From: Bacteroidia bacterium
GTDB taxonomy: Bacteria; Bacteroidota; Bacteroidia; UBA8524
Assembly (NCBI GenBank): GCA_037968475.1
Contig: JBBKVO010000024.1
Coordinates: 68,067 to 132,066, forward strand
Length of the DNA stretch: 64,000 nucleotides
Reading direction: 5' to 3'
A program made the translations under genes and the position numbers. A model generated the notes under the pieces. It searched no databases and was not told the DNA's origin. It worked only from the letters and a program-made list of their open reading frames with translations. This document shows, in pieces, positions 1 through 37,823 of this stretch (position 1 is its first letter; each line of letters begins with the position of its first letter).

Positions 1-3000
1 CAGGTTTAAAACCACTTGGAGGTATGATACCGAAGCGACTTTTGATTTCGATAATCAGATAAACTTAAACTGGCAGGGTAAAGAAGACGATATAATAAAA
101 AATGTACAATTGGGTAATGTAAGCCTGCCCCTAAACAGCAGCCTTATACAAGGTGGGCAAAGTTTGTTTGGTGCATTGCTGCAAATGCAGTTTGGCCGAT
201 TGATGGTTACCACCATATTTACCCAACAACGCGGGCAAACAACAGAAACCGAAGTAACAGGGGGCGCACAAGTAACCCAATTTGATATACAGGCAGATAA
301 CTACGATGTAAACCGCCACTATTTCCTTAGTCATTATTTCGCTGATAATTACAACCAATGGTGTAGTACATCACCCTTTATTAGTTCGCCTATACTTATT
401 ACCAACGTACAAGTTTGGGTAACCAATCGTACAGGTATATTTGATAACACTCGCGATGTTTTGGCATTTATGGATATGGGCGAACGTAACCCATTTAATA
501 ACACTTGGAATATACCCTCAGGCCCCGTAAACGCTGATAATAGCTCAAACAGCTTATACAACACCTTTCAGTTTGATGATTTAGCACGCCAATCAAACGA
601 AGCAGTAAAACACTTGCGCCAAGATAAAGGCTTAGACCCTATACAAGATTTTCAGTTGCTAAACAATGCCCGCCAGCTTAATACTAACGAGTATACCGTA
701 AACCCTCGATTGGGTTATATATCGCTAAACCAGGCACTTAATAATGACGAGATTTTGGCTGTAGCATTTGAGTATACCCTAAATGGAAAAAGCTATAAAG
801 TGGGTGAGTTTGCCCGCGAAATTTCATCGCCCGACCCAAATAAACCCAATGCCTTGATGCTGAAAATGCTGAAAGGAACTACCATTACCACCAGTTTGCC
901 TATTTGGGATTTGATGATGAAAAACATCTACTCACTAGGTTCATTCAGCGTACAAAAAGAGCAGTTTAAGCTAAATATAATATATGCCGATGATCCATCA
1001 AACGCTGATTTGAATTATATCCCTGCCAAAAACGAACCTAATTTTATAGGCGTTCCATTAGTACAAGTATTAAATCTTGATAAAGTAAACACCCAAGGCG
1101 AAGCAACACCCGACGGTGTTTTTGATTTTATAGAAGGGCTTACCATTAATACATCAAACGGTCGTGTAATATTTCCCGTTCGTGAACCTTTTGGCGATTT
1201 TCTGCGAAGCAAGTTTCAAGACCCTGCCAATGCTGAGTATTATGCCTACGATGCCCTTTACGATTCAACCAAGTGGCTGGCACAACAAGAAGTATTAAAA
1301 AATAAGTTCTTTTTACGAGGCAGTTACCAAGGCTCGTCAAATTCCGAAATTTCACTTAATGCCATTAACGTCCCGCAGGGTTCGGTGCGGGTTACTGCCA
1401 ATGGTACTTTGCTTACAGAAGGAACTGATTATATAGTTGACTATACTATTGGGCGTGTCAAAATATTAAATACAGGTATACTTAATTCAGGAGCAGTAAT
1501 AAAGGTATCATCAGAAAATAACAACCTATTTAGTATACAGCAAAAAACCCTGATAGGTGCCCGCTTTGATTACAAGGTTGATAAAGACTTTATTATTGGC
1601 GGTACGGTGATGCACTTGTACGAGCGCCCTATTACCCCAAAAGTAAATATTGGCGAAGAACCTATACTAAATACAGTAGTAGGAGTTGATGGTAGTATTC
1701 GCCGCGAATCGCGAACACTAACCCGTTTGATTGATCGTTTGCCGTTTATTAGTACCAAAGAACCATCAAACTTTCAGTTCAGTTTTGAGGGAGCAAAACT
1801 GTTTCCACACAATCCTAAAACCATCGGTCAACGAGGTACAGCTTTTATTGATGATTTTGAAGCCAGTGAAACCCCGTTTGATTTGCGCCTAGGCGCACCA
1901 TGGTACGTAGCCAGTACGCCCGAAGGGCAACCCGATCTTTTTCCTGAAACACAAAACACAGCCAATGCCTTAGGTTTTGGTTATAAAAGAGCGCGACTGG
2001 CATGGTACTCGCTTGACCCTATTTTCTTCCGCGATCAACAAGGAAGTAATCCGCCTACGCCTCCCAACTTAGCGGGTTCAAGCAACGCTTCAAAACGTTC
2101 AAACCACTACACCCGTGAGGTATTGCAAACAGAGGTTTTCCCTAACCGCCAATTGCAACAAGGTGTGCCTCAAAATATGCCTACTTTCGATTTGGCATAC
2201 TATCCATACATTCGTGGTCAATACAACTACACTGTTGATGGTATAAATGCTGATGGGGAAATGAAAGACCCAAAATCAAGCTGGGGTGGTATTATGCGCC
2301 GCATTGACCAAAACGATTTTGAAGCGGCTAATATTGACTATGTAGAGATATGGATGATGGATCCGTTTTTGCCCGGCCAAAACGGTACAGTACAAGACGG
2401 TAAATTCAACTCAAACAATCTTTCAGGTGGTTCGCTATACCTAAACTTAGGCTCTGTATCAGAAGATGTATTGCGCGATACCCGTAAAAGTTACGAAAAC
2501 GGTTTGCCCACACCTTCATCAACACAACAATTAACGGATGAAACGGAATGGGCAAGAGTACCCAATGTGCCCACGCTAAACAATGCGTTTGATGCCGACC
2601 CTGCCGCACGCGAAGCTCAAGACGTTGGATTAGATGGTTTTAATGATAACGACGAACGAGCACATTTTAGCCAGTATTTAGATACATTGCGCCAAATATT
2701 CGGAGCAACATCACAAGCATATTTAAAAGCAGCAGAAGACCCTTCGGGAGATAACTACCAATTTCACAGTAGCAAAAATTTCAACAATCAAAATGCAGGC
2801 GCGCTTGAGCGTTACCAGAAAATAAACGGGCAAGAAGGAAACTCAAAACTTGCTACCTTCCAACCCGATGGTTACCCTGTTACCCGCACCAATTTACCCG
2901 ATGATGAGGATATTAACCGCGATTATAGCTTAAACATAAACGAGCAATACTATCAGTATAAAATAGATCTTAAGCCCAACTCGCTTATAGTAGGGCAAAA

Positions 3001-6000
3001 CTATGTTACCGATAGTGCCTCGGTACCTGTGAAACTGGAAAACGGTGATGTTGAAAATGTTACTTGGTATCAACTGCGTATACCCGTAAACTCTTGGAGT
3101 AAAAAAATAGGCGGTATTAGCGATTTTAAATCTATTCGTTTCGCACGTTTGTTTGTAAAAGATTTTGACCAACCCATTGTATTACGTTTTGCACAAATGC
3201 AATTGGTACGTGCTGATTGGAGAAGGTATACAAAACCTCTTTCGGTGGGTGTGCCGGGTGTACCGGGTTCGCCTAGTGATAATACAGCGTTCTCAGTATC
3301 AACAGTAAATATCGAAGAGAACTCTACCCGTGTTCCTGTAAACTATACCCTGCCTCCGGGTTTCTTCCGTGAGCAAGATGTAACAACACCAAACAACGTG
3401 CAACAAAACGAGCAATCGGTATCCGTACGTTTTTGCAATCTACAAGAAGGCGATGCTAGGGGTATATTTAAAACCACTCGTTTTGATATCCGTAACTACA
3501 AGCATTTACGTATGTTCGTTCATGCCGAAGGGGAAAGTCAAGGCCTGCGTAATGGAGATGTTAAAGCCTTTATACGTTTAGGTACGGATTTAGAAAATAA
3601 CTACTACGAGTACGAGCTGCCACTTTTGGTAACGCCTGATAAAAGCCGCGATGCGCAGCAAGTGTGGCCTACTGAAAATGAGATAAACATAGCCCTTGAA
3701 GAGTTTTATTTAGCTAAGCAATTGCGCCAAAATGCCAATGCCCCACAAAACCAAGATTTTGTATACGATTTGGGTGGCGGAAAACGTATTACACTTAGAG
3801 GTGTGCCCGATTTGAGTAACGTGCGTGTAATAATGCTTGGTGTGCGCAACCCCGCTAAGTTTGATAACCCGTCGGGAGATGATGGTTTAGCAAAATGTGG
3901 TGAGATATGGTTTAATGAGTTACGTGTGGTTGAGTTTAATAACCAAGGCGGTGAGGCTGCTACTGCACGTTTAGTAACCAAACTGGCCGATTTGGGAACT
4001 TTCACCATATCGGGAAACTATCAATCTATTGGTTGGGGCGGTATTGATAAAAAACTGAATGATCGTAACCTTAACGAGATAATGCTGTACGATATGCAAA
4101 CCTCGTTAGAGTTGGGCAAGTTTTTCCCTGCTAAGTGGGGCGTAACAATACCTTTCTTTATGCAACGCGGTGAGCAGTTTATACGCCCTAAGTATAACCC
4201 GCTAAACCCTGATATTTTGCTTACAACCACTATTAAAACATCTAAAAGTGAGCAAGAAAAGCAAGAAATTATATCGGCAGCACAAGATTATACATCCAGA
4301 CGTAGTTTTAACTTTACCAATGTGCGTAAAAACCGTACTGGTGGTGGCAAACCACAGATATGGGACATTGAGAATTTTAACTTTACCTTCTCTTTTCAAG
4401 AAGTATTTAGACGAAACCAGCAAATTGCTGCCAGCTTACAACGCACATGGCGTGGTAGTGGGGGATATACTTTTGCTACGGGAGCGAAAAATATAGAACC
4501 ATTAAAGAAAATAATGAAGCCAAAGAAATGGTTGGCTTTGGTACGCGATTTCAACTTTACGCCTTACCCTCAAAGCTTCTCGGTAAGGGCTGATGCTGAC
4601 CGTTATTATTCAAGGACAATAAACCGAAATAATGACGACCCCAATACCATCGTCCCCATTTTGTACGATAAAAACTTCACCATGAATAGGGTGTATGATG
4701 TACGCTGGGATTTAACAAAAAGCCTTAAACTTGACTACCAAGCTACCTCTAATGCCCGTATTGATGAGCCAACAGGCAGGATTGATAAAAGCGAAGACCC
4801 ACACAAGATAGATACTATACAAAACAACTTTATCAACTTGGGGCGTACTACTAATTATACCCAAATAACCAACGTAAACTATACACTACCTCTAAACAAA
4901 ATACCTGTTTTAGATTGGGTAACGGCCAGCACACGATACACTGCCAATTATGGTTGGGTAACAGCACCACCTGCTATAAAAAGTTTAGGAAATACCATAC
5001 AAAACTCACAAAACTACTCGTATACAGGCCAGTTTAATATGGTTAACCTGTACAATAAAATACCTGCACTGCGCCGTATAAATCAAAACCAAAACAATAC
5101 TCCCAAACCAAAAGTTGAAGAGGAGGAAGAGGAAGATGATGGCAAAGGCGGTAAGAGGAAGAAAAAGAAGAAAACCGAATCGCCCCTAAAAGGTTTTGGT
5201 ACTGCTTTGGCAAAAACCTTAATGATGCTTAAAAACGCATCGTTTACCTCTACATCAACAAAAGGAACCACACTACCGGGCTTTAGGCACACCCCATTGT
5301 ATTTGGGTAATGATGCCGAACGGAATGCACCGGGTTGGGATTTTGTTTTTGGTAGCCAAGACCCTGCGGTACGTTATCGATTGGCTCAAGAAGGTTTTTT
5401 AAGTACCGATACGCTTCAAAATAATTACTTTACCCAAACCAGCCGAAAAGATTTTACGGCCAGTGCCACGTTAGAGCCTTTTAAAGATTTTAGAGTAGAG
5501 TTGCGATTCTCTCGAAACCAAACCGAAAACCAGCAAAGTGTATTTAAGTACGATGAAGCGGTGAAAGGTTATAACGATTTCGGTTTCCAGCAAACTGGTA
5601 GTTTCCAAATTGGTATATCTACACTGCGTACCACGCTGGAGAAAAAAGCGACCAATACCAGTTCTAAATCATTCGATCAGTTTTTAAATAATCGTTTTGT
5701 AATTGCACAACGCTATGCTGCCGAAGATCCTCGTTCGGTAGGAGCCACACAAAGCGGTTTCCCTAAAGGCTATACCAACAAAAACCAAGATGTGCTTATA
5801 TCTTCTTTTGTATCAGCATACACAGGCAAAAATGCACAAGGCCAGAGGCTGGATTTATTCCCTAAAATGCCTTTCCCTTCAATACGTATTAACTACAATG
5901 GGCTAAGCCGTATGAAGGCAATTAAAAAATATGCCAGTAGCGTAACATTGTCATCGTTCTATAGCTCAACCTATAATATACCTCAGTATATGACTATTTT

Positions 6001-8559: not shown

Positions 8560-9276
8560 CTAAAGAATCTCGAACCGTACTATAATAGAGTAGCGTATGG
8601 TAACAAAAGTGCCTATACTCTTTTCTTGCTTCATTTTTTCAAGAAACAAATTCATTAGGGCGCTATCTGTTGTATTTGCACCTGTATTTTCGGTAATAGA
8701 AAGTACTTTTCCCAGTTTATCGCCATTCAATTCAACAATAGGTGTAGCTTGGTCTTTGGCTTTTTGCATGGCTTTTAAGGCAAGCGTATTTTTATAATGG
8801 TCAGTCTTACTGTTTTTGTACGAGGCAAGTTTTACTCGTTGTCCTCCTAAAGAGTCTATACCGTGTAATATGGCTATGGGATGGGTTATTTTTTTCAGTG
8901 TCAGAACAAATTTCTTATTATTTCTTCCATTTGAGTAAAGACTAGAATAATCAAAAACTTCAGTACCCGGCATTGTGGCAATCAAGTGGTTATTAGTAAT
9001 TCCATTTTTTGTTAAAAAAGCTCGTATTTCTTTTTCTTGCTGCTCAATGGGTTTCTTTTTGGGTTCTACCTTCAAAAAATCAGTCGTTCCTTTTTCTACT
9101 ATAGTGGTAATCTGTGCTTCATCATCTCTGTCAGAAGATGTAAGATAAAACTCAAAAGTAAACTCATCGGCTTCAACCTCCATTTCTTCAGTGGCTACTA
9201 CCTCAATATAACGTTGGGCATAGGTTGTTGCGGGTATTATCAAGCCCAAAAAAAGAATAAGCAGTAGTTTTTTCAT
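8560..9276 (-). CDS. SIMPL (DUF541) domain periplasmic protein with a signal peptide
   Basis: 238 aa with a signal peptide. The pattern matches the YggE/SIMPL layout (IEVVATEEMEVEADEFTFEF ... IVELNGDKLGKVLSITE ... C-terminal beta strand). Confidence 0.5.
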   Translation of the reverse strand: MKKLLLILFLGLIIPATTYAQRYIEVVATEEMEVEADEFTFEFYLTSSDRDDEAQITTIVEKGTTDFLKVEPKKKPIEQQEKEIRAFLTKNGITNNHLIATMPGTEVFDYSSLYSNGRNNKKFVLTLKKITHPIAILHGIDSLGGQRVKLASYKNSKTDHYKNTLALKAMQKAKDQATPIVELNGDKLGKVLSITENTGANTTDSALMNLFLEKMKQEKSIGTFVTIRYSIIVRFEIL

Positions 9277-10458: not shown

Positions 10459-10827
10459 ATGGAAGATAATTTTAAAGACTTTTTTGGTGAGACCAAAACA
10501 CTGCTAAAAAGTTACACCGATAAGCGGTTAGAATTGGTGAAACTACAAGCCACCCTAAAAACCTCACAGGCATTGGGGCTGTTTTTCTCGTTGTTTATAG
10601 TGTTTTTTATATTGCTGTTTGTTATTGTGTTTGCGGGTATGTGGTTTTCGTTTTGGTTGGCTGAGAAAACGGATAGCTATTCCACAGGATTTGGCATTAG
10701 TACAGGTATTTTGGTATTACTTTTTGTGCTTGCTCTATTGCTTCGCAAAAAACTGATACAAACACCCGTAGCCAATTTGGTAGCCAGTGAAATAGCCAAC
10801 GACGATGAAGAGGAGTTTGAGGACTAA
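10459..10827 (+). CDS. Small two-TM membrane protein, holin-X-like (phage holin family / DUF-type)
   Basis: 122 aa: amphipathic N-terminus, two hydrophobic helices and an acidic C-tail (DDEEEFED). A putative TAATTTTG -7 box lies at 10402-10409. Confidence 0.35.
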   Translation: MEDNFKDFFGETKTLLKSYTDKRLELVKLQATLKTSQALGLFFSLFIVFFILLFVIVFAGMWFSFWLAEKTDSYSTGFGISTGILVLLFVLALLLRKKLIQTPVANLVASEIANDDEEEFED

Positions 10828-10839
10828 ACAACAGAAATT

Positions 10840-11229
10840 ATGGCAACTAGAATAAAAAATATACGCCAATTGCAACAGCGCATTAGCAAAGCAAAAACAG
10901 AATGCCGCGATATGGAAAACGATCTGGATAAACGGTTGGAGTATTTGCAGGAGAACTATATGGGTATGGCAGCCAATAGTGCTATATATGGCTTAATGAA
11001 ATCGCCCAAAAACTTTACCGTACTAAAAGATATTTTTACAGGGATATGGAATGCCGATAGTATAAAAGATTTTTTTAAGAAAACAGCCTTACGCTTTTTG
11101 CACGCCATAGCGGTGAAGTTGGGTTTTAAAATTGTGCGCGATTTTGCTGAAAGTAAAATGCACGGCAACGAAGAGGAGGAAGCAACTGCCACAGAAGAAC
11201 CAAGAGAGAACCCAAACAAAGAAGAATAG
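10840..11229 (+). CDS. Hypothetical coiled-coil protein, possibly co-operonic with the holin-like gene
   Basis: 129-aa ORF starting 12 nt after the upstream gene. Acidic C-terminus. No recognisable family. Confidence 0.35.
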   Translation: MATRIKNIRQLQQRISKAKTECRDMENDLDKRLEYLQENYMGMAANSAIYGLMKSPKNFTVLKDIFTGIWNADSIKDFFKKTALRFLHAIAVKLGFKIVRDFAESKMHGNEEEEATATEEPRENPNKEE

Positions 11230-11236
11230 AACATAT

Positions 11237-11581
11237 ATGAACCCAGTAGACGAGTTTAACAGCTACCGCGAACGCATGAACGAAAAGATTTTGGATGCGG
11301 ATAATTTGGTGCTAAAACGGCTTTTTAATCTTGATACACAAACCTATAAAGAAGGGGCTTTGCCTACTGCCACCAAAGAAATGTTGGGCTTGGTAGCCAG
11401 TATGGTATTGCGCTGCGATGATTGTGTAAAATACCACTTGGGCAAATGCTACGATGAGGGAATAAGCACCGCGCAGATGTATGAGATATTTGCTGTAGCC
11501 AACATAGTGGGCGGTACCATCGTTATACCCCACACCCGCCGTGCAGCCGAGTATTGGGAGGAGTTGCAAAAAACCAACTAA
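11237..11581 (+). CDS. Carboxymuconolactone decarboxylase (AhpD-like) family protein
   Basis: 114 aa from ATG 11237: MNPVDEFNSYRERMNEK ... MVLRCDDCVKYHLGKC (CxxC/H AhpD-like core). The longer track ORF from 11132 overlaps the upstream gene and is taken as a spurious extension. Confidence 0.65.
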   Translation: MNPVDEFNSYRERMNEKILDADNLVLKRLFNLDTQTYKEGALPTATKEMLGLVASMVLRCDDCVKYHLGKCYDEGISTAQMYEIFAVANIVGGTIVIPHTRRAAEYWEELQKTN

Positions 11582-11796
11582 ATAAAGCAAGTTTAAGGTA
11601 GTCGTTAAGAACTACTTTTCAAACATAGGATGACACCTGCCGCACCCAATTCCCCGTCACCCTGAATTTATTTCAGGGTCTCGTTGCCCAATAACCATTA
11701 ATACAGAGCGAGATGCTGAAATAAATTCAGCATGACTGTCCAACGGCAATTGATTTTTGCAAAGACCTTCGGGCAAGGTTTCCCTCCTTGCAGGGT

Positions 11797-11820
11797 TGTC
11801 TTGCTGAGCGGAGTCGAAGC
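11797..11820 (+). repeat. Copy of the genome-wide hairpin repeat core (TGTCttgCTGAGCGGAGTCGAAGc), embedded in a GC-rich, hairpin-dense block spanning 11620-11990
   Basis: Matches the cores at 27409, 27683, 27796, 32506, 32906 and 32945. The upstream flank ttccctccttgc is shared with the copy at 27785. Confidence 0.55.
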
Positions 11821-12028
11821 ACGCGGGAAGGCAAAAGATAGAGAAGGAGTGGTTTAAGTCGGTAAGGACTTTTCAGCCTCCACCCGCACAGATTCCCTTT
11901 TACAGGGGAATGACGGGTAGCCGCGCCGTGCCAGTACAGTTCCCCGAAGCGTCCCTCGCTTCGGGACACTAGCTTTTAGTATTTCGTTATGTCAAGCTTT
12001 CGCGTGGATACGAGTTTGCTGGTGTATT

Positions 12029-12128
12029 GATTTTAGGATTTTTTATATCGAACACACATTAGGGTCAGATGTTTTCATCTATCCTCAACTCAACGTATAA
12101 AACTCTACTTTTTCAGTATTGTGCGAGC
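12029..12128 (-). repeat. Copy A of the 3' end plus downstream flank of the AlbA_2-like gene (about 93% identical to 13035-13130)
   Basis: Direct alignment of ttttatatcgaacacacattagggtcagatgttttcatctatcctcaactcaacgtataaaactctactttttcagtattgtgcgagc with the true gene end. Confidence 0.6.
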
Positions 12129-12199
12129 TAGAGCATTTTTTGAAATAATAGCCACTTTGGATAACAATGTAATAAGAAAACTTAAAGTCAGGTCAAGTG

Positions 12200-12370
12200 C
12201 CACTATTTAAATAGAAAAAACCGCCATTAAAAAACAAAAAATAGTGCGTTTCACCATTTAAATAGGAAAGATATCCACTCGAATATTTTTAAAATAAGAT
12301 ATCCTCCGTTAATATAAAGCGCTACCTCTGACTAAATAATTACAAACCGCCATTTAAATAAAGAAACTGC
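12200..12370. repeat. Cluster of 3-4 direct repeats of a CC(G/A)CCATTTAAATA(G/A)AAA-like motif (12200-12225, 12217-12234, 12252-12270, 12347-12370). Possible iterons or a protein-binding array.
   Basis: Seen in the sequence. The ATTTAAAT core is itself palindromic. Confidence 0.3.
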
Positions 12371-12422
12371 TATTTGTATAAAATCGGTCGAAAGAGTTAA
12401 ATTAATTTGGGTACATTTGATC

Positions 12423-12457
12423 TAAATAAAAAAACCCCAATAATTGGTGCTATTGGG
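12423..12457 (-). terminator. Rho-independent terminator for minus-strand transcription: stem ccccaata/tattgggg with an 8-nt loop, followed on the minus strand by a T8+ run
   Basis: The perfect 8-bp stem and the A-run on the plus strand (12423-12433) are seen in the sequence. Confidence 0.45.
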
Positions 12458-12465
12458 GAATGATA

Positions 12466-12554
12466 TTGGCTAGTAGCTTAATCAGGATAAAGCGTCCCGC
12501 CATTGAGGAGTGGTAACCGTTTGGGAGGATAATAGTTCGAATCTATTCTAGCTG
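12466..12554 (+). ncRNA. tRNA-like element, either a degenerate class-II tRNA or a small tRNA-like RNA. It has a 7-bp acceptor stem (two G-U pairs), a D-arm (gctt/aagc with a GG-containing loop), a T-arm (aatag-TTCGAAT-ctatt), a 17-nt variable region and a non-canonical anticodon arm. A UGA anticodon appears only if a 4/5-bp stem with a mismatch is accepted.
   Basis: Hand-folded from the sequence. It is flanked by convergent terminators on the left (12423-12457, minus strand) and the right (12568-12590, plus strand). No CCA is encoded. Confidence 0.3.
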
Positions 12555-12567
12555 ACTATTTTAGTTT

Positions 12568-12590
12568 TAAAAGCCCTTAGGGGCTTTTTT
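12568..12590 (+). terminator. Rho-independent terminator (aaaagccc-ttag-gggctttt followed by TT) just downstream of the tRNA-like element
   Basis: 8-bp stem plus a T tract. Confidence 0.5.
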
Positions 12591-12663
12591 CATTATACAA
12601 ATATAAGAAGTTTCAATATCCCGACTACTTTTTTGCTCCCCAAGCCCATTTTTTGTTCTTTTC

Positions 12664-12697
12664 GCATTGGAAAAAAAAAATTTTTTTTTTCCAATGC
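12664..12697. repeat. Perfect 34-bp palindrome: gcattgg-A10-T10-ccaatgc
   Basis: Seen directly in the sequence. The homopolymeric A10/T10 core would be slippage-prone. It is a possible bidirectional terminator or recombination site. Confidence 0.6.
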
Positions 12698-12768
12698 ACT
12701 GAAATACAGGGCAATAAATTCTTATTTAGACAGATTACAAATTATATTTTTAATGTATGGATTTCTGG

Positions 12769-12960
12769 TCAGCTTAGAGTATAAAACTCTACTTTTTCAG
12801 TATTGTGCGAGCGGATAATACCCGCCGAAATAAGGTTGACCAATATTTTACTGGCACGCCAGCGCGAAATATTTATCATTTTGCATCCGCTCGTTTGTGG
12901 TTTAAGCTTATCAGCTTCATTGGCCTGAAGACCAATGCTATTCATACCTAACGGCACTCC
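12769..12960 (-). pseudogene. Copy B, a fragment (last ~60 codons plus stop) of the AlbA_2-like gene. It is about 92% identical to 13087-13275 with an ~18-bp internal deletion.
   Basis: The 62-aa ORF translation ends ...CKMINISRWRASKILVNLISAGIIRSHNTEKVEFYTLS, which is identical to the C-terminus of the 207-aa protein at 13087-13710. Confidence 0.65.
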
Positions 12961-13086
12961 CGATAGGGTCTAAATAGCGGTAGGTTTTAACCTGCTGCGG
13001 TAGTAAGGGCATAACTATACTCTCGCACAGATTTTATAATTTTCTTTTATCGAACGCACATTAGGGTCAGATGTTTTTATCTATCC

Positions 13087-13710
13087 TCAACTCAGCGTAT
13101 AAAACTCTACTTTTTCTGTATTGTGCGAGCGGATAATACCTGCCGAAATAAGATTAACCAATATTTTACTGGCACGCCAGCGCGAAATATTTATCATTTT
13201 GCAATATTGTTTCAAAGTGATGCGCTCGTTTTTGGCTAGGTAATCCAGCAAGGCTTGCTCTTTACTGGTTATTTGTATCAAATTATCTTTTTGGGCAGTC
13301 TCTTTTTTCAGCACATCTACCACCACCTTGCTGGCCAGCAGGCTCTTATCTTTCACACGTATATACACCCACCATTTGCCATCCTCGCCTTTGGCGGCAT
13401 AGGGTTTGTCTTTTCCTTCGGGAATAATGGCCTCCAATATAATTTTCCCCTCCAACTCATGCTCAAGTATTAGCAACTCAATAGTGGGTTTGCAGTAAAA
13501 ATCAGCAGCAAGACCAAGCATATATTTTTCGTCCTCGGTGCGTATACCCGCAATACTTTTATTATCGCGTACGCCAACCAAAAGTCGTCCGCCTTTTCGG
13601 TTAGCAAATGATACCATTGTTTTGGCAATTTTTGCGGCGCTGCTTATCTCCTGCTTAAAATCCAGCTCTTCGTTTTCGCCCTTTTGTATCAAATACCGCA
13701 AATCCTTCAT
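13087..13710 (-). CDS. AlbA_2/Schlafen-like divergent-AAA (putative DNA-binding) domain protein with a C-terminal winged-helix. Often annotated as an ATP-binding protein or transcriptional regulator.
   Basis: 207 aa. N-terminal ELDFKQEISSAAKIAKTMVSFANRKGGRLLVGVRD matches the AlbA_2 signature. C-terminal HTH-like segment. Confidence 0.5.
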   Translation of the reverse strand: MKDLRYLIQKGENEELDFKQEISSAAKIAKTMVSFANRKGGRLLVGVRDNKSIAGIRTEDEKYMLGLAADFYCKPTIELLILEHELEGKIILEAIIPEGKDKPYAAKGEDGKWWVYIRVKDKSLLASKVVVDVLKKETAQKDNLIQITSKEQALLDYLAKNERITLKQYCKMINISRWRASKILVNLISAGIIRSHNTEKVEFYTLS

Positions 13711-13832
13711 GGTAATTTCAATAATAACAAATCAAAATCAGTATTACTTGGTTATTGTATTGTGTTGGTACAATTAAAACAGCTTTGTTACCTTCGCGGC
13801 AAATTAAAAATAATACATAGAAAAATATACAC

Positions 13833-15296
13833 ATGGCTAAATACAAAATCTCTGTTGCAAAGGGCGATGGCATCGGTCCCGAAATTATGGATGCTGTTCT
13901 TTCAATCTTCTCTGCTGTAAATGTTGATATTGAGTATGAGTTTGTAGAAATGGGCAAAGACATTTTTTTGGCAGGCCATAGCGCAGGGATGACTCCTGAG
14001 GCTCAAAAAAGCATCGAAAGCAACGGTATATTGTTTAAAGGCCCTATGGAAACCCCAAAAGGCAGAGGCATGAAAAGTATAAACGTAACAGCACGTAAGG
14101 TGTGGAGTACGTTTGCTAACGAGCGCCGTTTCCGCACCCTAAACGGGGTAGATACCGTATACTCAAAAGCAGGTATACCTATTGATATTACCATCGTTCG
14201 TGAAAATATAGAAGATACTTATGGTGGAATTGAACACCTAAACACGCAAGATGTGGCACTTTGTCGCCGTTTTATTACCCGCCAAGGCAGCGAGCAAGTA
14301 CACCGTTATGCGTTTGAACTAGCCCGCCGCAGTGGCAGAAAAAGCGTGATATGCGGCCACAAAGCCAATATTATGAAACTTACTGACGGTATGTTTTTAG
14401 AGGCTTTTTACAGCGTTGCTAAAGACTATCCTGAAATTGAAGCCGGCGACCGTATTATTGACGATTTGTGTATGAAGTTGGTGGTGCGCCCCAACGAATT
14501 TGAAATAATTGTACTGCCCAACCTTCAAGGCGATATAGTGTCAGATCTTTGTGCTGGTTTGGTAGGTGGTTTGGGTTTTGCCCCATCATCAAACATAGGC
14601 GAGCGTATTTGCATATTTGAAGCTGTACACGGTACCGCCCCCGATATAGCAGGTAAAAATATTGCCAACCCAACATCGCTATTGCTTAGTAGCTTAATGA
14701 TGTTGCGCCACTTAGGCTTTTTTAAACAAGCTGATGCGTTAGAAAACAGCTTGCTGTATACCCTTGAAAGCGGTGTGCATACAGGTGATTTTGGCGATAG
14801 GGTGATACCTGCCAAAAACACTACCGAGTTTGCACAAGCCATTATTGATAATTTGGGCAAGAAACCCGAAAAATCGAAACCTGCAAATACTCCTGACAGG
14901 GAATATACATGGACTAAACCTGCTTTTCCTGATAAGCAACCTATGATGGTGAGCCCAAAAAGGTCGGAAGAAACCCTTGTTGGTGCCGACTTTTTTATTG
15001 AAAGCGACCAATTGGCGGCTGATATTGCCCCTGCGATACAAAGCCTTTTGCCCAGCAACCTTGAGTTGGTGGTAATAAGCAACCGTGGCACGCAAGTATG
15101 GCCAACAGGCTCAATACTTACTGAGTGTGTTGGGCATTATAGCCTACGTGTATCAACAAAAGATGGTGCAGCTACTGATTTAAAAGCCATTTTTGAATTA
15201 TCGGCCAAGTTGGGCGAGAAATACTACATCTCGTCGGTAGAAATGCTACGCAACTATGGCGAACTAAAAGGATATAGCTTGGCACAAGGCCAATAA
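13833..15296 (+). CDS. icd: Isocitrate dehydrogenase, isocitrate/isopropylmalate dehydrogenase family, with an ~140-aa C-terminal extension
   Basis: 487 aa. N-terminal KGDGIGPEI motif, catalytic IVRENIEDTYGG segment and the NLQGDIVSDL motif. The C-terminal region from residue ~345 has no counterpart in ~340-aa family members. Confidence 0.7.
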   Translation: MAKYKISVAKGDGIGPEIMDAVLSIFSAVNVDIEYEFVEMGKDIFLAGHSAGMTPEAQKSIESNGILFKGPMETPKGRGMKSINVTARKVWSTFANERRFRTLNGVDTVYSKAGIPIDITIVRENIEDTYGGIEHLNTQDVALCRRFITRQGSEQVHRYAFELARRSGRKSVICGHKANIMKLTDGMFLEAFYSVAKDYPEIEAGDRIIDDLCMKLVVRPNEFEIIVLPNLQGDIVSDLCAGLVGGLGFAPSSNIGERICIFEAVHGTAPDIAGKNIANPTSLLLSSLMMLRHLGFFKQADALENSLLYTLESGVHTGDFGDRVIPAKNTTEFAQAIIDNLGKKPEKSKPANTPDREYTWTKPAFPDKQPMMVSPKRSEETLVGADFFIESDQLAADIAPAIQSLLPSNLELVVISNRGTQVWPTGSILTECVGHYSLRVSTKDGAATDLKAIFELSAKLGEKYYISSVEMLRNYGELKGYSLAQGQ

Positions 15297-15397
15297 TTCT
15301 CTATCAAGAAGAAATATAATTTTGTTTGAAGCGGGCGCCGTAGGCGCGCGCGTCTTTTGTTTATGCTATTTTAAAACACCCTGTTAGTTTAAAAATA

Positions 15398-16696
15398 CTA
15401 CCTAGCCGTAATAGGGGAGAATAGTGTGCCTAGCGAATTAAATTTTATAGCCTTTGATAGCGTAACAACATATAGCGGCCTAGGGTTAATTAAGTAATTT
15501 ATTATTTCGGCTTGCAACGTAACACCTGAAACAGCTTCGGTTAGCCAAGCACGGCCGGTAAAGAATATATCCCCTTTGGGTCTAAAGGTAGTTTCGCTGG
15601 TTTGAGAAGCTATTCTGCCATAAGGAGTATAAGTTGATGAGTAGCCAACAGAGGCATTTACACGCACACTTATATTTTTATTTTCATGTTTAATAAATAC
15701 CCCTAGAAAGCCAACTTTAAAGCTAAACTCATTCAACTTTGAAATAAAACTATTGGGGGCGAAAATAGGATAGCCAGGAGACCTATCTGTAACATTTACT
15801 GTATCAAGCGGCATTGCATCTTTAAAAGTGGTCGAAATTTGTGTACGTCGCCAAACAAACTCTAATGATGGGCTGTAGTATAGCTGTATATTATTGGTTT
15901 CTTTACTCATCCAACCCATTTTTACCAACCCACTAATAAAAGCCCCAATATTGTCTGATGTGGTTGTTTTTACCGATTTAGCTTGATCCCGATAAATAGA
16001 AACAGTACTATCGTTTACTCTTTTACTGCCTGTAGACCGAAGAGCGATGGAAGCAGAATCGATACTGCTAAACGCCCTATTACCATAAAGACTTAAATAC
16101 ATACCCCACCCCCCTTTCTTTTTTGGGGGTAGTAAAAATATATTAGTGGCAAAAAACAAATTATTGGCCTGCACGCCATCCACCAAATCAAAGTTTGTTC
16201 CTACATAAGAAAGATACTGATAGTCTTTTAAAGTATCATTATTTGTAGCCTCGCTAGTAGCAGGGTCTTCATCCACAATTATCTGCATTTCCATACCCTC
16301 TTTGCTATATTCGCTCGCCACAACTTTGCCCACACTGTCTCTTACCTTTAAGACGAGAACCAGTTTTTTCGATCTATCAGGTAAAGAATCAGGTTTTAAA
16401 TTTACATAAAAGGGATAAGTTTTGGCGTCAACCAGTTCTTTTAAGGTAATTTGGTCAAAATCAATACTGTACTCTGTTGCCGCTAGGCTCGATTTTGAAT
16501 AATCCACCTCAATATCAACAGTAAATTTTTTTGTCTCATCAGTAACGCCCTTGATGTAGTATTTAAAAATTTTCTCCTTTTTTGTATTTTTTTGTATACT
16601 ATCAGCAGTTTTTACAAAATCAACCTTGTAAACTGTTTGGCCAATAGTGTCAGCAACCAACACCAAAAGCATAATAGATAAAACTAAGTTCTTCAT
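15398..16696 (-). CDS. Hypothetical secreted/outer-membrane protein with a signal peptide
   Basis: 432 aa with an N-terminal signal peptide. Beta-rich composition and aromatic C-terminal residues, but no clear family. Confidence 0.4.
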   Translation of the reverse strand: MKNLVLSIMLLVLVADTIGQTVYKVDFVKTADSIQKNTKKEKIFKYYIKGVTDETKKFTVDIEVDYSKSSLAATEYSIDFDQITLKELVDAKTYPFYVNLKPDSLPDRSKKLVLVLKVRDSVGKVVASEYSKEGMEMQIIVDEDPATSEATNNDTLKDYQYLSYVGTNFDLVDGVQANNLFFATNIFLLPPKKKGGWGMYLSLYGNRAFSSIDSASIALRSTGSKRVNDSTVSIYRDQAKSVKTTTSDNIGAFISGLVKMGWMSKETNNIQLYYSPSLEFVWRRTQISTTFKDAMPLDTVNVTDRSPGYPIFAPNSFISKLNEFSFKVGFLGVFIKHENKNISVRVNASVGYSSTYTPYGRIASQTSETTFRPKGDIFFTGRAWLTEAVSGVTLQAEIINYLINPRPLYVVTLSKAIKFNSLGTLFSPITAR

Positions 16697-16828
16697 GATT
16701 TTTTTTGAATTATTTGATAGGTAAATTCAAAAATAAAAGAAGCTGCAAAATATATTCTACGTATAAATACCCATTTATATTTAGAAAGAATACAAAATGT
16801 TAAAAGGGATTTTTTTAGCCCGTATACT

Positions 16829-27408: not shown

Positions 27409-27432
27409 TCCTTCGACTTCGCTCTGGATGAC
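27409..27432 (-). repeat. Hairpin-repeat core copy (reverse orientation): ccttcgacttcgctctggatgaca
   Basis: Matches the family consensus TGTCATCCTGAGCGRAGTCGAAGG. Confidence 0.55.
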
Positions 27433-27530: not shown

Positions 27531-27682
27531 GAGCAACGACACAAATCAGGCTAAACAATATTTTGGGGTGAGTTAAAAAAACCTTGTCGACAGGTTAAAA
27601 CCTGCCGCTATTTATTACCCTATCGGGATTGCCGTGAGGTATGAATAGAATCGGGTTTCAAACCGATGAAAGCAACAGCACT

Positions 27683-27820
27683 CCTTCGACTTCGCTCAGG
27701 ATGACAGCCGCCGCACAAGGGGGACAATGCAGGGTTATATTTTTGGCAAAATAGTCTAAAAACCAATGGGCAGAGTCGTGGCTTCCCTCCTTGCGCTGTC
27801 GTCCAGAGCGAAGTCGAAGG
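27683..27820. mobile_element. MITE-like element, 138 bp. Terminal inverted copies of the repeat core (27683-27706 reverse, 27796-27820 forward) flank a ~90-bp spacer containing the family's internal motif caagggggacaatgcagg.
   Basis: The two 24-bp termini are reverse complements (22/24 matches). The same internal motif recurs at 32452-32478. Confidence 0.5.
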
Positions 27821-32439: not shown

Positions 32440-32540
32440 ACGAACTAACCTTGCTCAAGGGGGACAATACAGCGCGAGTTATTATTTAATAGTTTGTGCG
32501 GTATTTGTCATCCTGAGCGGAGTCGAAGGAGAGCGAGGGG
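32440..32540 (+). repeat. Hairpin-repeat family copy (internal motif caagggggacaatacagcg ... core TGTCATCCTGAGCGGAGTCGAAGGAGAGCGAGGGG)
   Basis: Aligned to the copies at 27683-27733 and 32945-32978. Confidence 0.55.
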
Positions 32541-32905: not shown

Positions 32906-32978
32906 CCTCGACTCCGCTCGGCATGACACAGCGCGCTGTGCGGCTGTCATCCTGAGCGGAGTCGAAGGAGAGCGAGGG
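32906..32978. repeat. Inverted pair of hairpin-repeat cores (32906-32928 reverse, 32945-32978 forward) forming a ~23-bp stem with a 16-nt loop
   Basis: cctcgactccgctcggcatgaca ... tgtcatcctgagcggagtcgaagg. Confidence 0.6.
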
Positions 32979-32984
32979 TTGGGA

Positions 32985-34052
32985 TTAAAACTTAACGCCT
33001 AATTTAACGCCTAATTCTTCCAAGTCTTTTGTTACGGCATCGGTAAGGGGTATACCATTTTGCAGGCGGTTTTCTTGCTCAAAAATTTCGGGTTCGCCGG
33101 GTATTAGCACTTTTTTGCCTTCAATAGCAGGTGATGCCTTAAAGCGTTCTATCCAATTTTCAATATTTTTATTGTATTCGTCCATCGGGCGAAAACCATC
33201 TACCCGCATAGCTCCCACAAAATGACCGATACCTTGTCCCGGCATATCAGCAGCAAGGGGCAAAAAACTAACAAAAGGGGGCACCCACGGGCCATAGTTT
33301 GCACCTGATAATACCGCCGAAAATATATCTACCACCGCCGCCAGCGCATAGCCTTTGTGTCCCGCCTCTTCCATACTGCCAAGGGGTAGCAATGCGCCGC
33401 CTTTTTTCAGTTCGGCAGGGTCGGTACTGGGTTGTCCGTCTTTGGTTTGTACCCAACCTTCGGGGATGCTTTTGTTTAGTCGCTGAGCTATTTCCAGTTT
33501 TCCGTTTGCCGCTGCCGATGTGGCTAAATCGCTTACAACGGGTGTATATTTTCCCGCAGGCATAGCAAAACACATGGGGTTGGTGCCCAGTAAACGCTCA
33601 GTACTGTTGGTAGGGGCTACTAGCGGACTGGCATTGGTCATACTAATGCCAATCATATTTTGTTCTGTTGCCATTAGGGCATGGTAGGCCGCAATACCAA
33701 AGTGGTTAGAGTTTTTTATGGCTACCCATCCGCTGCCTACGTTGTTGGCTTTTTCAATAGCTATTTCCATAGCTTTTGGGGCTACTACCAAGCCCAAACC
33801 TTCATCGCCATCTACTGTGGCGGTGGATGGGGTTTGGTGGACTATTTTAATATTGGGTTTGGGGTTTATACGGCCTGCTTCCCATAGGCGCACGTAGCCC
33901 GATAGGCGGGCAACACCATGCGAATCAATTCCGCGTATATCAGCCTTTACCAAAACATTGGTGGCAAGGGTAGCATCAGCATCGCTGCAACCCATTTTAG
34001 TAAAAACCGAATGACAAAAGTTTTCTAAGTGTTGTTTTGTGTAGGTATTCAT
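32985..34052 (-). CDS. Ldh_2 family (malate/L-lactate/sulfolactate dehydrogenase-like) oxidoreductase
   Basis: 355 aa. N-terminal region GIDSHGVARL is typical of Ldh_2. Confidence 0.65.
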   Translation of the reverse strand: MNTYTKQHLENFCHSVFTKMGCSDADATLATNVLVKADIRGIDSHGVARLSGYVRLWEAGRINPKPNIKIVHQTPSTATVDGDEGLGLVVAPKAMEIAIEKANNVGSGWVAIKNSNHFGIAAYHALMATEQNMIGISMTNASPLVAPTNSTERLLGTNPMCFAMPAGKYTPVVSDLATSAAANGKLEIAQRLNKSIPEGWVQTKDGQPSTDPAELKKGGALLPLGSMEEAGHKGYALAAVVDIFSAVLSGANYGPWVPPFVSFLPLAADMPGQGIGHFVGAMRVDGFRPMDEYNKNIENWIERFKASPAIEGKKVLIPGEPEIFEQENRLQNGIPLTDAVTKDLEELGVKLGVKF

Positions 34053-34130
34053 TTATTAGCTGTTAGCGCTTAGCTTTTGGCTCTTAGCTAATTGCTAAAG
34101 GCTAAACAGCCAATAGTTAACAGCCAAAAA

Positions 34131-34874
34131 TTACCCAATTGCTTCGGCCAGCAAATCTACAATATGCACAGGTTTTAGGGGAAGATTTTTCTTATTTATA
34201 TAAGCCTCAATATGCATCAAACAACCTGGGTCGTTTGATACTATATAGTCAGCCCCAGTTTCCAAAGCATCATTCACTTTTTGTTCGGCAAGGGCTACTG
34301 ATACGGATTCGTAATTGGTAGAGAAGAAACCACCAAAACCGCAGCACTCCTCAGGGCTTTTCATTTCTATCAATTCTAAGCCTTTAATATTTTTCAAAAG
34401 GGTGCGCGGTGCTGTTTTTATACCACATTTTAGCGATTGGCAGCTATCGTGGTAGCACACTTTAGCATTAAGCGTAAGCCCTAAGTCTTCCTTTTTCAGC
34501 TCGTCAACAATAAACTCACATATCTCGTGCAGGTTTTTTTGCAAGCGTTTGCAGGGGTTGTGCAACATACTGTTGTTAAACAAAGTAGTATACCATTGGC
34601 GCACCATACCCGTACACGCTCCCGAAATGGAAACCGCAGGCCTATCGTACTGAAACTCGCGGATAAATTTTTCGCCAATCAGTTTGGCATCGTCAAAATA
34701 ACCATCGGTATAGGCAGGCAGTCCGCAACAGGTTTGTTCGGGCTCGTAGTTCACCTTACAGCCCAAAAACTCTAATACCTTCACCATATTAAAACCTGTT
34801 TCAGGCTTCAATTGGTCGGTAAGGCAGGGTATATGAATATCTACAGTTAGTTGCTGGGTGCGCACTTGTACCAT
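34131..34874 (-). CDS. Cysteine-rich (CCG-domain) Fe-S oxidoreductase subunit, LutA/GlcF-like
   Basis: 247 aa with two CCG-type cysteine clusters (CCGLP...C and CCGFGG). Confidence 0.6.
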   Translation of the reverse strand: MVQVRTQQLTVDIHIPCLTDQLKPETGFNMVKVLEFLGCKVNYEPEQTCCGLPAYTDGYFDDAKLIGEKFIREFQYDRPAVSISGACTGMVRQWYTTLFNNSMLHNPCKRLQKNLHEICEFIVDELKKEDLGLTLNAKVCYHDSCQSLKCGIKTAPRTLLKNIKGLELIEMKSPEECCGFGGFFSTNYESVSVALAEQKVNDALETGADYIVSNDPGCLMHIEAYINKKNLPLKPVHIVDLLAEAIG

Positions 34875-35039
34875 TGTTTACAAACCTACATTTTTTTGCA
34901 ATGTGTAAATATACTTGCTGTCAACATTTGTTAACAGGCGGTTAATAATGGGCGTTGTACACTGGTTTACTAGGGATTTAAAACCTATTCTTTATGTATT
35001 TACCACACCTTTAAAAGTAAAATGTATTTTTGCCTACTT

Positions 35040-36923: not shown

Positions 36924-37162
36924 ACAGAGGTTTTCTTTTTTGCCCCTTGTAAGTATTAAAACCTTTAAAAGAGGTAATCAAGCATTTATGTTAATAAACA
37001 AAGCAATCTTTTAGAAAATAAAAAGAGATTAAGCGTTAAGCAATCAATACCTGAAACTCAAAAAAGTAATAAGAGAAGAAATTGAGAACCTTGGCAATAT
37101 TTTGGCATAGTATAGTTAACCCTAAAAACTGATACTTAACAAGAAGGGTTTTGATTAGATGT

Positions 37163-37783: not shown

Positions 37784-37823
37784 CAGTGAGATTTTTTATA
37801 GCTGCCCATTTTTTTTAATAATA

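Follow-up and report, generated by a model that had tools for sequence, protein, structure and literature searches.

Partial copies of an AlbA_2-wHTH gene end in a Bacteroidia contig fit the scar of a decayed integrative element and, probably, a later join of two haplotypes

The locus studied here raises the question of how the 3' end of a single gene came to be repeated downstream of its intact copy in an uncultured Bacteroidia lineage. The gene encodes a protein with a Schlafen AlbA_2 domain (Pfam PF04326, 7.7e-21) and a C-terminal winged helix-turn-helix (wHTH; HTH_24, 3e-4). It is conserved in 55 Bacteroidia loci, and both here and in the nearest relatives it forms a divergent pair with icd. 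The original prediction counted three partial copies of its end; the repeats are real, and they consist of two partial copies (A and B) plus the intact end. We favor, at a probability of roughly 0.55, an account in two events: integration of an element, then a tandem join of the occupied and the empty haplotypes. The analysis covered a stretch of 64,000 nucleotides (the window), whose relevant features are as follows.

11237-11581, convergent CMD/AhpD-like gene, the stop codon of which borders 11582-12028
11582-12028, left 447 nt: GC-rich (48%) intergenic DNA of generic REP-like elements
11656-11736, REP-like hairpin pair
11805-11819, TGAGCGGAGTCGAAG unit within the left 447 nt
12029-12128, minus strand, copy A, the putative attR side: core copy 3 (12095-12128), native last codons and flank 3 (12029-12084)
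12129-12768, segment "Ea", an insert of 640 nt (31% GC) bounded by core copies 2 and 3
12203, 12254 and 12350 (starts), plus strand, three CYATTTAAATAR motifs, all within 12203-12361 and 75-235 nt from core copy 3
12435-12458, minus strand, terminator-like hairpin with a T-run, just beyond the antisense of the tRNA-like gene
12467-12556, plus strand, tRNA-like gene (ARAGORN and Rfam RF00005), convergent with AlbA_2
12569-12588, plus strand, terminator-like hairpin 3' of the tRNA-like gene
12664-12697, perfect 34-nt palindrome GCATTGG-A10-T10-CCAATGC, 72 nt past the copy B stop codon
12769-12885, minus strand, copy B, the putative attL side: codons 169-207 and stop of a second AlbA_2 allele, with core copy 2 at 12779-12812
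12886-13029, minus strand, spacer of native-type intergenic DNA that separates copy B from the intact gene, including 32 unique nt
12886-12897, ...ACGAGCGGATGC, matching the AlbA_2-CMD intergenic hairpin of relatives L049 and L076 at 12/12 positions
12916-12997, 81-nt three-hairpin repeat within the spacer, unrelated to the AlbA_2 gene
13030-13086, minus strand, flank 1, native DNA immediately downstream of the intact gene, with 89% identity to flank 3 (12029-12084)
13087-13710, minus strand, intact AlbA_2 gene with C-terminal wHTH (ORF, 207 aa)
13097-13130, core copy 1, within the last 44 nt of the intact gene (13087-13130)

The copies share a 34-nt core, GCTCGCACAATAC[T/A]GAAAAAGTAGAGTTTTATAC, which occurs on the minus strand at 12095-12128, 12779-12812 and 13097-13130, always in direct orientation, and was found neither elsewhere in the window nor in 100 shuffles. 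Copy A is as predicted: it aligns with 13030-13130 at 92% identity, comprises the gene's last 44 nt and about 57 nt of flank, and keeps the native last codons ACG TTG AGT TGA, which end at 12085. For copy B the retained stop codon was correctly recognized, but of the ~190 bp assigned to it only 117 nt belong to the gene (94% identity to 13087-13203), the remainder being the unrelated 81-nt hairpin repeat. The cores of A and B are identical at 34 of 34 positions and enclose 640 nt (684 nt from start to start). Copy A stops being homologous precisely where the core begins on its 5' side, and copy B changes character precisely at the core's 3' edge. The first 17 nt of flank 1 are common to relatives. 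The left 447 nt lie outside this repeat system, and their REP-like families recur at 27.4-27.8 kb and 32.5-33.0 kb of the window, at 1167 and 4215-4340 of L049, and in the intergenic region of L076. The 81-nt repeat is likewise clade-wide, with further copies at 27591-27670 of the window and 4062-4142 of L049. Relative to related genomes, the locus is an insertion.

Comparison with related genomes, which the original prediction had proposed, revealed relatives with an empty site and none with the same three copies. In the closest of them (L049, L056-58, L062-65 and L076), 91-107 nt separate the AlbA_2 stop codon from that of the CMD gene and contain no repeat; the distance here is 1505 nt. We retrieved 55 loci and examined 53 relatives for duplication of their own gene end within 10 kb. 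None had one (0/53), a result that does not support a recurrent integration hotspot. Among the 49 relatives whose downstream ORF lies inside the retrieved DNA, three (L001, L011 and L054) have 431-849 nt at the site, again with no duplicated gene end, and all others have 33-214 nt of non-coding DNA there. No tRNA adjoins the AlbA_2 gene among the relatives examined, and the gene's downstream neighbor varies among lineages. The window and L049 are about 89-90% identical in the ~600-900 nt on either side, with no step by which a recombination tract could be dated.

The origin of copy B can be approached through its substitutions. It departs from the intact copy at seven sites (T>C, T>C, A>G, A>T, G>T, G>A and T>C), all of them third positions and all synonymous (P ~2e-5 under neutrality). 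Changes private to copy B are absent from its first 105 nt, where neutral decay along the intact copy's branch time would be expected to leave ~18, and number three in its last 12 nt (P=0.004 for clustering at the 3' end). Because the differences are exclusively synonymous and private changes are scarce, copy B is unlikely to be an old local duplicate. Its last 12 nt read ACT CTA AGC TGA in place of the native ACG TTG AGT TGA and encode the same amino acids (the ...YTLS end); the chance that a random 12-mer encodes T-L-S-stop is 2.6e-5. Unrelated AT-rich DNA follows. Natural breaks of synteny in relatives lie 12-17 nt or more beyond the stop codon and never within the gene. We infer that the recoded last codons are the signature of an element-borne mimic of the gene end (attL), and that the A/B pair would consequently be the scar of one Campbell-type integration.

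The segment enclosed by the two cores differs from its surroundings in composition. Its GC content of 31%, compared to 39.7% for the window and 48% for neighboring intergenic DNA, is within the lowest 3% of 640-nt windows, and it lacks the REP elements of the clade. A six-frame check found no coding ORF in it: stop-free frames reach at most 52 codons, except for two frames of low complexity (83 and 67 codons), which extend into the antisense of copy B (12552-12800). Since these are the only candidates, we rejected an integrase pseudogene; identity as a MITE or IS was rejected on the absence of terminal inverted repeats. No ORF of at least 150 aa in the window has a recombinase Pfam match, and an autonomous integrative element (prophage, ICE or IME) was dismissed, as no integrase or recombinase is encoded beside the att site or in the window. 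The suggestion of a defense-island hotspot is not supported, given that the island has no credible coding ORF (low-complexity frames below ~85 codons) and the window no defense or integrase gene. The AlbA_2 protein itself gave only weak wHTH matches against PADLOC (E>0.002), none of them significant.

The tRNA-like element, the repeat motifs and the terminators on both strands that the original prediction had named are all present in the segment. The tRNA-like gene scores 39.5 bits against RF00005 (29-bit cut-off), the only Rfam family detected in the island. Its acceptor stem, D arm and canonical T arm are good in the Rfam model, but its anticodon arm is aberrant, with a 5-bp stem closing 22 nt rather than a 7-nt loop. 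The ARAGORN call of Gln-UUG requires an anticodon stem paired at only 3 of 5 positions, and no U33-bearing 7-nt sub-loop exists within the arm. We therefore do not regard it as a functional tRNA gene, whose 5-bp anticodon stem would carry a 7-nt loop with U33. The three exact CYATTTAAATAR motifs are the only ones in the window and lie in the arm adjoining the putative attR; they are candidate arm-type recombinase-binding sites or iterons. The arms of the 34-nt palindrome are 100% complementary with a 0-nt spacer, and it is possibly a bidirectional terminator for the gene completed by the element. Judged from its sequence, the island is unlikely to have a present function, save possibly for the terminators and the tRNA-like transcript.

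No relative of the segment was recovered from the databases searched. There is no homologue of the 640 nt in the rest of the window or in 81 retrieved loci, and no integrase, attP-bearing parent element or second copy was found in the window, these loci, viral and metagenome contigs, phages or plasmids. In particular, the whole island has no BLASTN match among phages and plasmids, and a 29-nt core and three tRNA-like or palindrome patterns have no exact match in IMG/VR. The exact attL junction pattern is absent from JGI metagenomes, where a tolerant tRNA-like pattern retrieved only unrelated canonical tRNAs of tRNA arrays. Exact-protein look-ups with the island ORFs and the intact AlbA_2 protein returned no record.

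Based on these observations, the first event would have been integration, in a lineage that we call haplotype 2, of a foreign DNA circle on which 44 nt mimicked the end of AlbA_2. It would have entered by a single Campbell-type crossover inside the 34-nt block GCTCGCACAATACTGAAAAAGTAGAGTTTTATAC, most likely catalyzed by a site-specific recombinase; RecA-mediated Campbell insertion of a circle via the 34-nt homology is indistinguishable from integrase action. Copy B would then be attL, in which the resident gene and core are followed by the element-supplied ACT CTA AGC TGA, keeping ...YTLS, and by the palindromic terminator. Copy A would be attR, with an element arm, the core, and the displaced native end and flank. 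The element may since have decayed, or may have been non-autonomous from the start, and would now persist as a 640-nt, CIME-like remnant with no integrase. The marks of an att footprint are present (core repeats bounding an insert, an empty site in relatives, a regenerated gene end and deviant composition), and the anatomy of the A/B pair fits attR and attL, with the 640 nt as the remnant of an integrative element. The decayed integrated element of the original prediction is likewise in keeping with this segment, in view of the 34-nt identity block, the AT-rich foreign DNA and the recoded gene end. If this event took place, the parent element would carry the core plus TCTAAGCTGA. If the att sites are still active, excision would restore ...GAGTTTTATAC GTTGAGTTGA GGATAG directly after the upstream sequence of copy B, and the circular junction would be AAAAAATGCTCTAG-core-TCTAAGCTGACCAGAAATCC.

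The second event, probably recent, would have joined in tandem the occupied haplotype 2 and an empty-site haplotype 1 comprising the intact gene, its flank and native intergenic DNA. The illegitimate joint would be 12885|12886, at a TGC microhomology, and the other crossover presumably fell in flanking homology, as in homology-facilitated illegitimate recombination. The haplotype-2 gene would thereby have been cut down to its last 39 codons. At the joint, hairpin-like intergenic DNA meets codon 169 of copy B at the 3-nt TGC; a homologous crossover would leave no mark. The spacer upstream of copy B appears to be native-type, because it includes the shared flank, the clade-wide 81-nt repeat and the 12/12 match to the hairpin of relatives. 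The native-hairpin reading of ACGAGCGGATGC at this joint is moderately supported, as the match has GAGCGGA in common with a genome-wide REP family and competes with a shifted 14/16 match to the AlbA_2 gene, the best that 12886-12915 offers. Overall, the duplication of B and the intact end seems to stem from haplotypes that were recently joined by illegitimate recombination and not from a second integration. Serial or tandem integration, which had been proposed as the source of the third copy, finds no support in the native-type intervening DNA or in the 3-nt microhomology joint at codon 169.

Under that proposal, the three cores in direct orientation would reflect two site-specific integrations in one attB, the second into the attL of the first, with decay of both elements to units of 318 and 684 nt. 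Elements that target gene 3' ends are documented to accrete and then to decay to integrase-less CIMEs (PMC5704250; PMC3146451). The putative second element (13086 to 12813), however, is only a near-perfect copy of the empty attB (73 nt of gene, the native end and the 57-nt flank) together with clade-typical intergenic repeats. Its end is not recoded, its GC content of 46% is not foreign, the arm repeats are absent, and copy B stays homologous for 73 nt upstream of the core, more than a simple attP arm calls for; we consider accretion rather unlikely. Serial displacement would dispense with an integrase altogether: three chromosomal haplotypes would be stacked by successive homology-facilitated illegitimate recombination, each event leaving the 3' stump of the previous gene together with that gene's native flank. 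The 640 nt would then be flanking DNA native to a third lineage. This reasoning also accounts for the B junction, such displacement is reported to leave remnants at other loci (PMC5361080, PMC3240628), and the downstream neighbor of AlbA_2 does differ between lineages. Still, displacement would not lead one to expect private changes to jump from 0/105 to 3/12 within copy B while the coding sense is kept. It also leaves unexplained why the break precedes the stop codon, given that every natural break follows it by 12 nt or more; moreover, the GC content of 31% and the missing REP elements argue against a clade-native origin of the 640 nt. For these reasons, we regard it as unlikely. A further reading, quite improbable in our estimation, treats the 640 nt as a complete miniature non-autonomous integrative element that is served by a recombinase in trans and uses the AlbA_2-wHTH 3' end as an undescribed Bacteroidia attachment site. 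The features behind it are the two identical att cores, the three arm-type repeats and the terminator-flanked tRNA-like gene with its extended anticodon arm. If it were true, the tRNA-like RNA would serve some separate purpose, such as processing, priming or recruitment of the recombinase.

It is also conceivable that a metagenome assembler threaded coexisting occupied- and empty-site strains in tandem. The source is evidently a MAG, and two allele types would yield the graph branches seen in short Logan contigs. The only sample found with this species is SRR28403175, whose short contigs break at repeats and show neither haplotype alone. One contig of this run (L066) is 100% identical to 13174-15340 and starts at 13174, exactly where a k=31 graph must branch given reads with the 12885|12886 junction. 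Only such reads would lead one to expect this start; no branch would arise at 13174 from a second strain whose gene is complete, and the 3 nt common to both sides of the B junction are too little overlap for assembler joining; hence, an artifact seems very unlikely. The Logan data would thereby support the junction independently, but SRR28403175 is perhaps the same sample as the window, which makes its independence uncertain. A functional cassette exchanging the AlbA_2 C-terminus, such as a DGR template/variable repeat pair or a recombinational switch, would also place a partial 3'-end copy near the gene. Yet the copies encode identical amino acids, the mismatches are not adenine-specific, the repeats are direct rather than inverted, the window encodes no reverse transcriptase or invertase, and relatives lack the copies. 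The chance of such an arrangement is negligible, and a DGR, shufflon or cassette was rejected on the synonymous, non-A-specific differences and the lack of a reverse transcriptase in the window.

The favored two-event account resembles known systems in part. NBU1 and NBU2 of Bacteroides are mobilizable elements of ~10 kb that encode IntN and Mob and integrate by a tyrosine recombinase at tRNA 3' ends. They come from the same phylum and regenerate the 3' end of their target, but this target is a tRNA, and their IntN and Mob genes have no counterpart here. The target of ICESt1 is a protein gene, fda. Further parallels are the CIMEs (cis-mobilizable elements) and the decayed remnants of ICEs and IMEs found at protein-gene 3' ends, such as the ICESt1-related elements of Streptococcus thermophilus (PMC5704250). 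As in CIMEs, direct copies of the target 3' end bound the insert, element sequence completes the gene, relatives have an empty site, and integrase and transfer genes are lost. In contrast, the insert here is 640 nt with no protein gene, an AlbA_2-wHTH gene is not a described attB, and no cognate integrase or parent element was found. With both cores intact and identical, the segment may be called CIME-like on the strength of its sequence. The tandem ssrA genomic islands of Dehalococcoides target tmRNA and have 20-bp repeats, a serine recombinase, several kilobases of DNA and cargo genes (PMC3146451). They share with this locus multiple direct 3'-end repeats downstream of the intact gene, some units without integration genes, and a pseudo-tRNA, inside the integration module, that is comparable to our tRNA-like gene; this locus differs in having three copies, no cargo and a second duplication that seems not to be site-specific. 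Homology-facilitated illegitimate recombination (PMC3240628) and the T6SS effector-immunity displacement arrays of V. cholerae (PMC5361080) offer a model for the second event. As in these arrays, an intact gene copy lies upstream of the 3' stump of a displaced copy, with one joint of minimal microhomology; the arrays keep functional immunity cargo and divergent C-termini, whereas here the C-terminus is the same and no gene is kept.

We conclude that the gene-tail copies are an ordinary, cargo-free genomic scar and not a new system, and that they open no new biological question. The locus is of use as a worked example of how partial copies of gene 3' ends arise and of how substitution patterns separate the routes: taken jointly, differences that are all synonymous, private changes and recoded last codons set an element-borne mimic apart from a gene end duplicated locally or a pseudogene in decay. 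The analysis also flags an odd tRNA-like gene and puts forward a candidate attachment site in this uncultured Bacteroidia lineage, the 3' end of the AlbA_2-wHTH gene next to icd. Should the parent element be found, the site could aid the annotation of integrative elements in Bacteroidia MAGs.

The repeated 3' ends of the AlbA_2 gene described in the original prediction are real, with boundaries that are corrected in the list below. The stop codons of AlbA_2 and of the CMD gene that faces it lie 1,505 nt apart, and no credible ORF was found in that interval.

Features of the AlbA_2 locus
11237-11581: CMD/AhpD-like gene, convergent with the AlbA_2 gene
11582-12028: left 447 nt of the island, REP-like elements
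12029-12128: copy A, 92% identical to the last 44 nt of the AlbA_2 gene and roughly 57 nt of the flank behind it
12467-12556, plus strand: tRNA-like gene (Rfam tRNA model, 39.5 bits)
12769-12885: copy B, 94% identical to 13087-13203, i.e., the last 39 codons plus stop
13087-13710, minus strand: AlbA_2 gene, 207 aa, with a Schlafen/AlbA_2 domain (PF04326, 7.7e-21) followed by a winged helix at the C terminus
13833-15296: icd, divergent from the AlbA_2 gene
12095-12128, 12779-12812, and 13097-13130: 34-nt core
72 nt past the copy B stop codon: start of a perfect 34-nt palindrome, GCATTGG-A10-T10-CCAATGC

Copy B is indeed a gene-end copy, but its claimed length of about 190 bp does not hold, as 12916-12997 is an unrelated 81-nt three-hairpin repeat. 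The core has no further copy in the 64 kb and did not occur in any of 100 shuffles. In gene direction, the order is copy B, core, TCTAAGCTGA, 640 nt (12129-12768), core, GTTGAGTTGA, and native flank. Over the core, copies A and B do not differ; its 5' edge is the exact start of copy A homology, and its 3' edge is the exact point where copy B changes character. In a three-way comparison of the first 105 nt, private substitutions number 0 in copy B, 4 in the intact copy, and 5 in the closest relative, L049. All private substitutions of copy B, 3 in number, fall in its last 12 nt and are synonymous (ACT CTA AGC TGA versus ACG TTG AGT TGA), and past them similarity vanishes entirely. This clustering is unlikely by chance (P = 0.004), as is a random 12-mer encoding T-L-S-stop (P = 2.6e-5). 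The pattern supports a Campbell-type insertion, in which a circular element would carry a mimic of the gene end in its attP, leaving the target ORF intact.

The 640-nt insert has a GC content of 31% (39.7% in the window) and lacks the REP elements of the clade. The original prediction of a tRNA-like element, CYATTTAAATAR motifs, and terminators of both orientations was borne out; the three CYATTTAAATAR motifs, exact and the only ones in the window, sit in the insert next to attR, the copy A side. No integrase is encoded in the insert, which points to a decayed or nonautonomous element, and no recombinase, transposase, or RT domain was detected among ORFs of at least 150 aa in the 64 kb. The insert thus matches what the ICE/IME literature terms a CIME (PMC5704250). 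The collections searched yielded neither a parent element nor an attP nor another copy of the 640-nt insert, with public scans covering exact patterns only.

The tRNA-like gene has a 7-bp acceptor stem (with two G-U pairs), a D arm, a canonical TUCGAAU T-loop, and its own terminator 12 nt downstream. However, where a 7-nt anticodon loop is expected, its 5-bp stem (UCCCG/UGGGA) is closed by 22 nt, which fold into an additional 6-bp hairpin (GAGG loop) plus an 8-nt bulge. Inspection of the loop indicates that no simple deletion yields a 7-nt loop with U33, and we therefore reject a normal decoding tRNA. No homologue was found: a loose D-arm pattern (TAGCTTAATCAGG plus the generic T-loop GTTCGAATC) returned only unrelated, AT-rich tRNAs in metagenomic tRNA arrays. 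A precedent is the pseudo-tRNA within the integration module of Dehalococcoides ssrA islands (PMC3146451).

The integration footprint originally proposed is supported for one event, the A/B pair, but not for the third copy. Copy B and the intact gene differ at 7 positions, all 7 third-position and synonymous (P of about 2e-5 under neutrality), and copy B would have gained about 18 private changes had it decayed neutrally for as long as the branch of the intact copy, against 0 seen before the last 12 nt. An old local duplication is rejected on these grounds; rather, the two copies appear to derive from functional genes that diverged in separate lineages, and to have been juxtaposed recently. 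The 144 nt between them extend the native flank and include the 81-nt repeat, which is found across the clade and, in one form, also 3' of AlbA_2 in a relative, L001. This spacer ends in ACGAGCGGATGC, which matches CACGAGCGGATGCTCG, a hairpin between AlbA_2 and CMD in L049 (12/12), and the corresponding stretch of metagenome contig L076 (11/11), and it meets copy B at codon 169, the two sides sharing just the microhomology TGC. An empty-site and an occupied haplotype may thus have been fused by an illegitimate joint, the second crossover lying in homologous flanking DNA, a topology known as homology-facilitated illegitimate recombination (PMC3240628). This joint is the weakest link of the account: GAGCGGA is also part of a REP family, and this stretch also aligns to the AlbA_2 gene at 14/16 positions in a shifted register. 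An assembly artifact is an unlikely alternative for the tandem arrangement. Run SRR28403175 yields two Logan contigs that match 10553-11683 and 13174-15340 at 100% identity and end at repeats, the second beginning exactly at 13174. That break is forced in a k=31 graph if the reads contain the 12885|12886 junction, whereas no branch would arise there from an additional strain whose gene is complete. We conclude that the junction is real in the read data, although the sample may be the window's own. No other sample with this species was found.

The comparison set comprised 55 loci with an AlbA_2 gene from one genome scan. In L049 (OZ252261.1, a Bacteroidia MAG of a sister lineage, distinct from the source genome) and likewise in the metagenome contigs L056-58, L062-65, and L076, the AlbA_2 and CMD stop codons are 91 to 107 nt apart with no repeat, an empty site. 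No gene-end duplication occurs within 10 kb at any of 53 loci examined, nor does a tRNA lie beside AlbA_2 at any of the 55. The downstream neighbor varies by lineage (CMD, M23 peptidase, purQ, or recG), flank homology to the window genome continues 12 to 17 nt beyond the stop codon, and the intergenic gap is 33 to 214 nt in 46 of the 49 relatives whose sequence extends to a downstream ORF; the exceptions (L001, L011, and L054; 431 to 849 nt) have no duplicated gene end. The site is therefore a synteny breakpoint, and we reject a recurrent integration hotspot; the suggested defense hotspot likewise found no support. In the more distant L011 (6800-7300 region), an 818-nt AT-rich spacer 3' of AlbA_2 has a GC-rich core surrounded by four copies of TTCTAATSATTTT in two orientations, without a gene-end duplicate or homology to the insert.

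Several repeat families occupy the intergenic DNA.

Intergenic repeats
REP-like unit TGAGCGNAGTCGAAG, family form TGAGCG[A/G]AGTCGAAG, 7 copies in four intergenic regions of the window: 11805-11819, 27411-27425, 27684-27698, 27805-27819, 32514-32528, 32906-32920, 32953-32967
Inverted hairpin-unit pair GTCACCCTGAATTTATTTCAGGGTCTCG + CGAGATGCTGAAATAAATTCAGCATGAC: 11656-11736; L049 4215-4278; L076 about 8675-8700
81-nt three-hairpin repeat: 12916-12997; 27591-27670 (opposite strand); L049 4062-4142; partial in L001 about 2975-3010

The clustered TGAGCG[A/G]AGTCGAAG copies (7 versus 0.09 expected by chance) resemble repeats common in Bacteroidota; related pieces are present in L049 and L057. The hairpin pair is another mobile or REP-like element, 95% conserved at a different locus in the sister genome and present within the AlbA_2-CMD spacer of L076; Logan contig L061 terminates inside it. 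The 81-nt repeat, intergenic and in two cases just 3' of an AlbA_2 gene, folds on either strand (z of about -2.7 to -3.7), shows compensatory changes in its first stem (CATTGG/CCAATG versus CATCGG/CCGAT), and has no Rfam match; it could represent either a small RNA or an element of the REP/terminator type.

Other differences lie farther away. Relative to L056, L057, and L076, where the gap between icd and the SBF transporter gene is about 73 nt, 15362-16827 is a 1.47-kb insertion with a 432-aa ORF (15398-16696, minus strand; N terminus hydrophobic and signal-peptide-like by eye) that has no Pfam match. The CCG/Ldh_2 genes, directly 3' of the SLT gene in the sister genome (L056 10735-12345), are inverted and about 15 kb from it in the window (33338-34948), indicating rearrangement between close lineages. 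The GC minimum (29%, about 36850-38700), with two ORFs lacking Pfam matches (37151-37783, plus; 37824-38903, minus), may be another acquired segment.

The locus is most similar to integrative elements that decayed at the 3' ends of genes and to stumps of displaced genes; the mechanism is of a known kind, and the target is new. Conservation relative to L049 is highly uneven at this locus (13087-15296). Protein identity is 99.5% for AlbA_2 and 100% for CMD, while the neighboring icd reaches 85.6% and a 129-aa protein 85%, and DNA identity is about 90% immediately around the island and 85 to 90% over longer stretches. Such conservation of AlbA_2 amid about 90% DNA identity implies that this small AlbA_2-wHTH regulator is under strong purifying selection.
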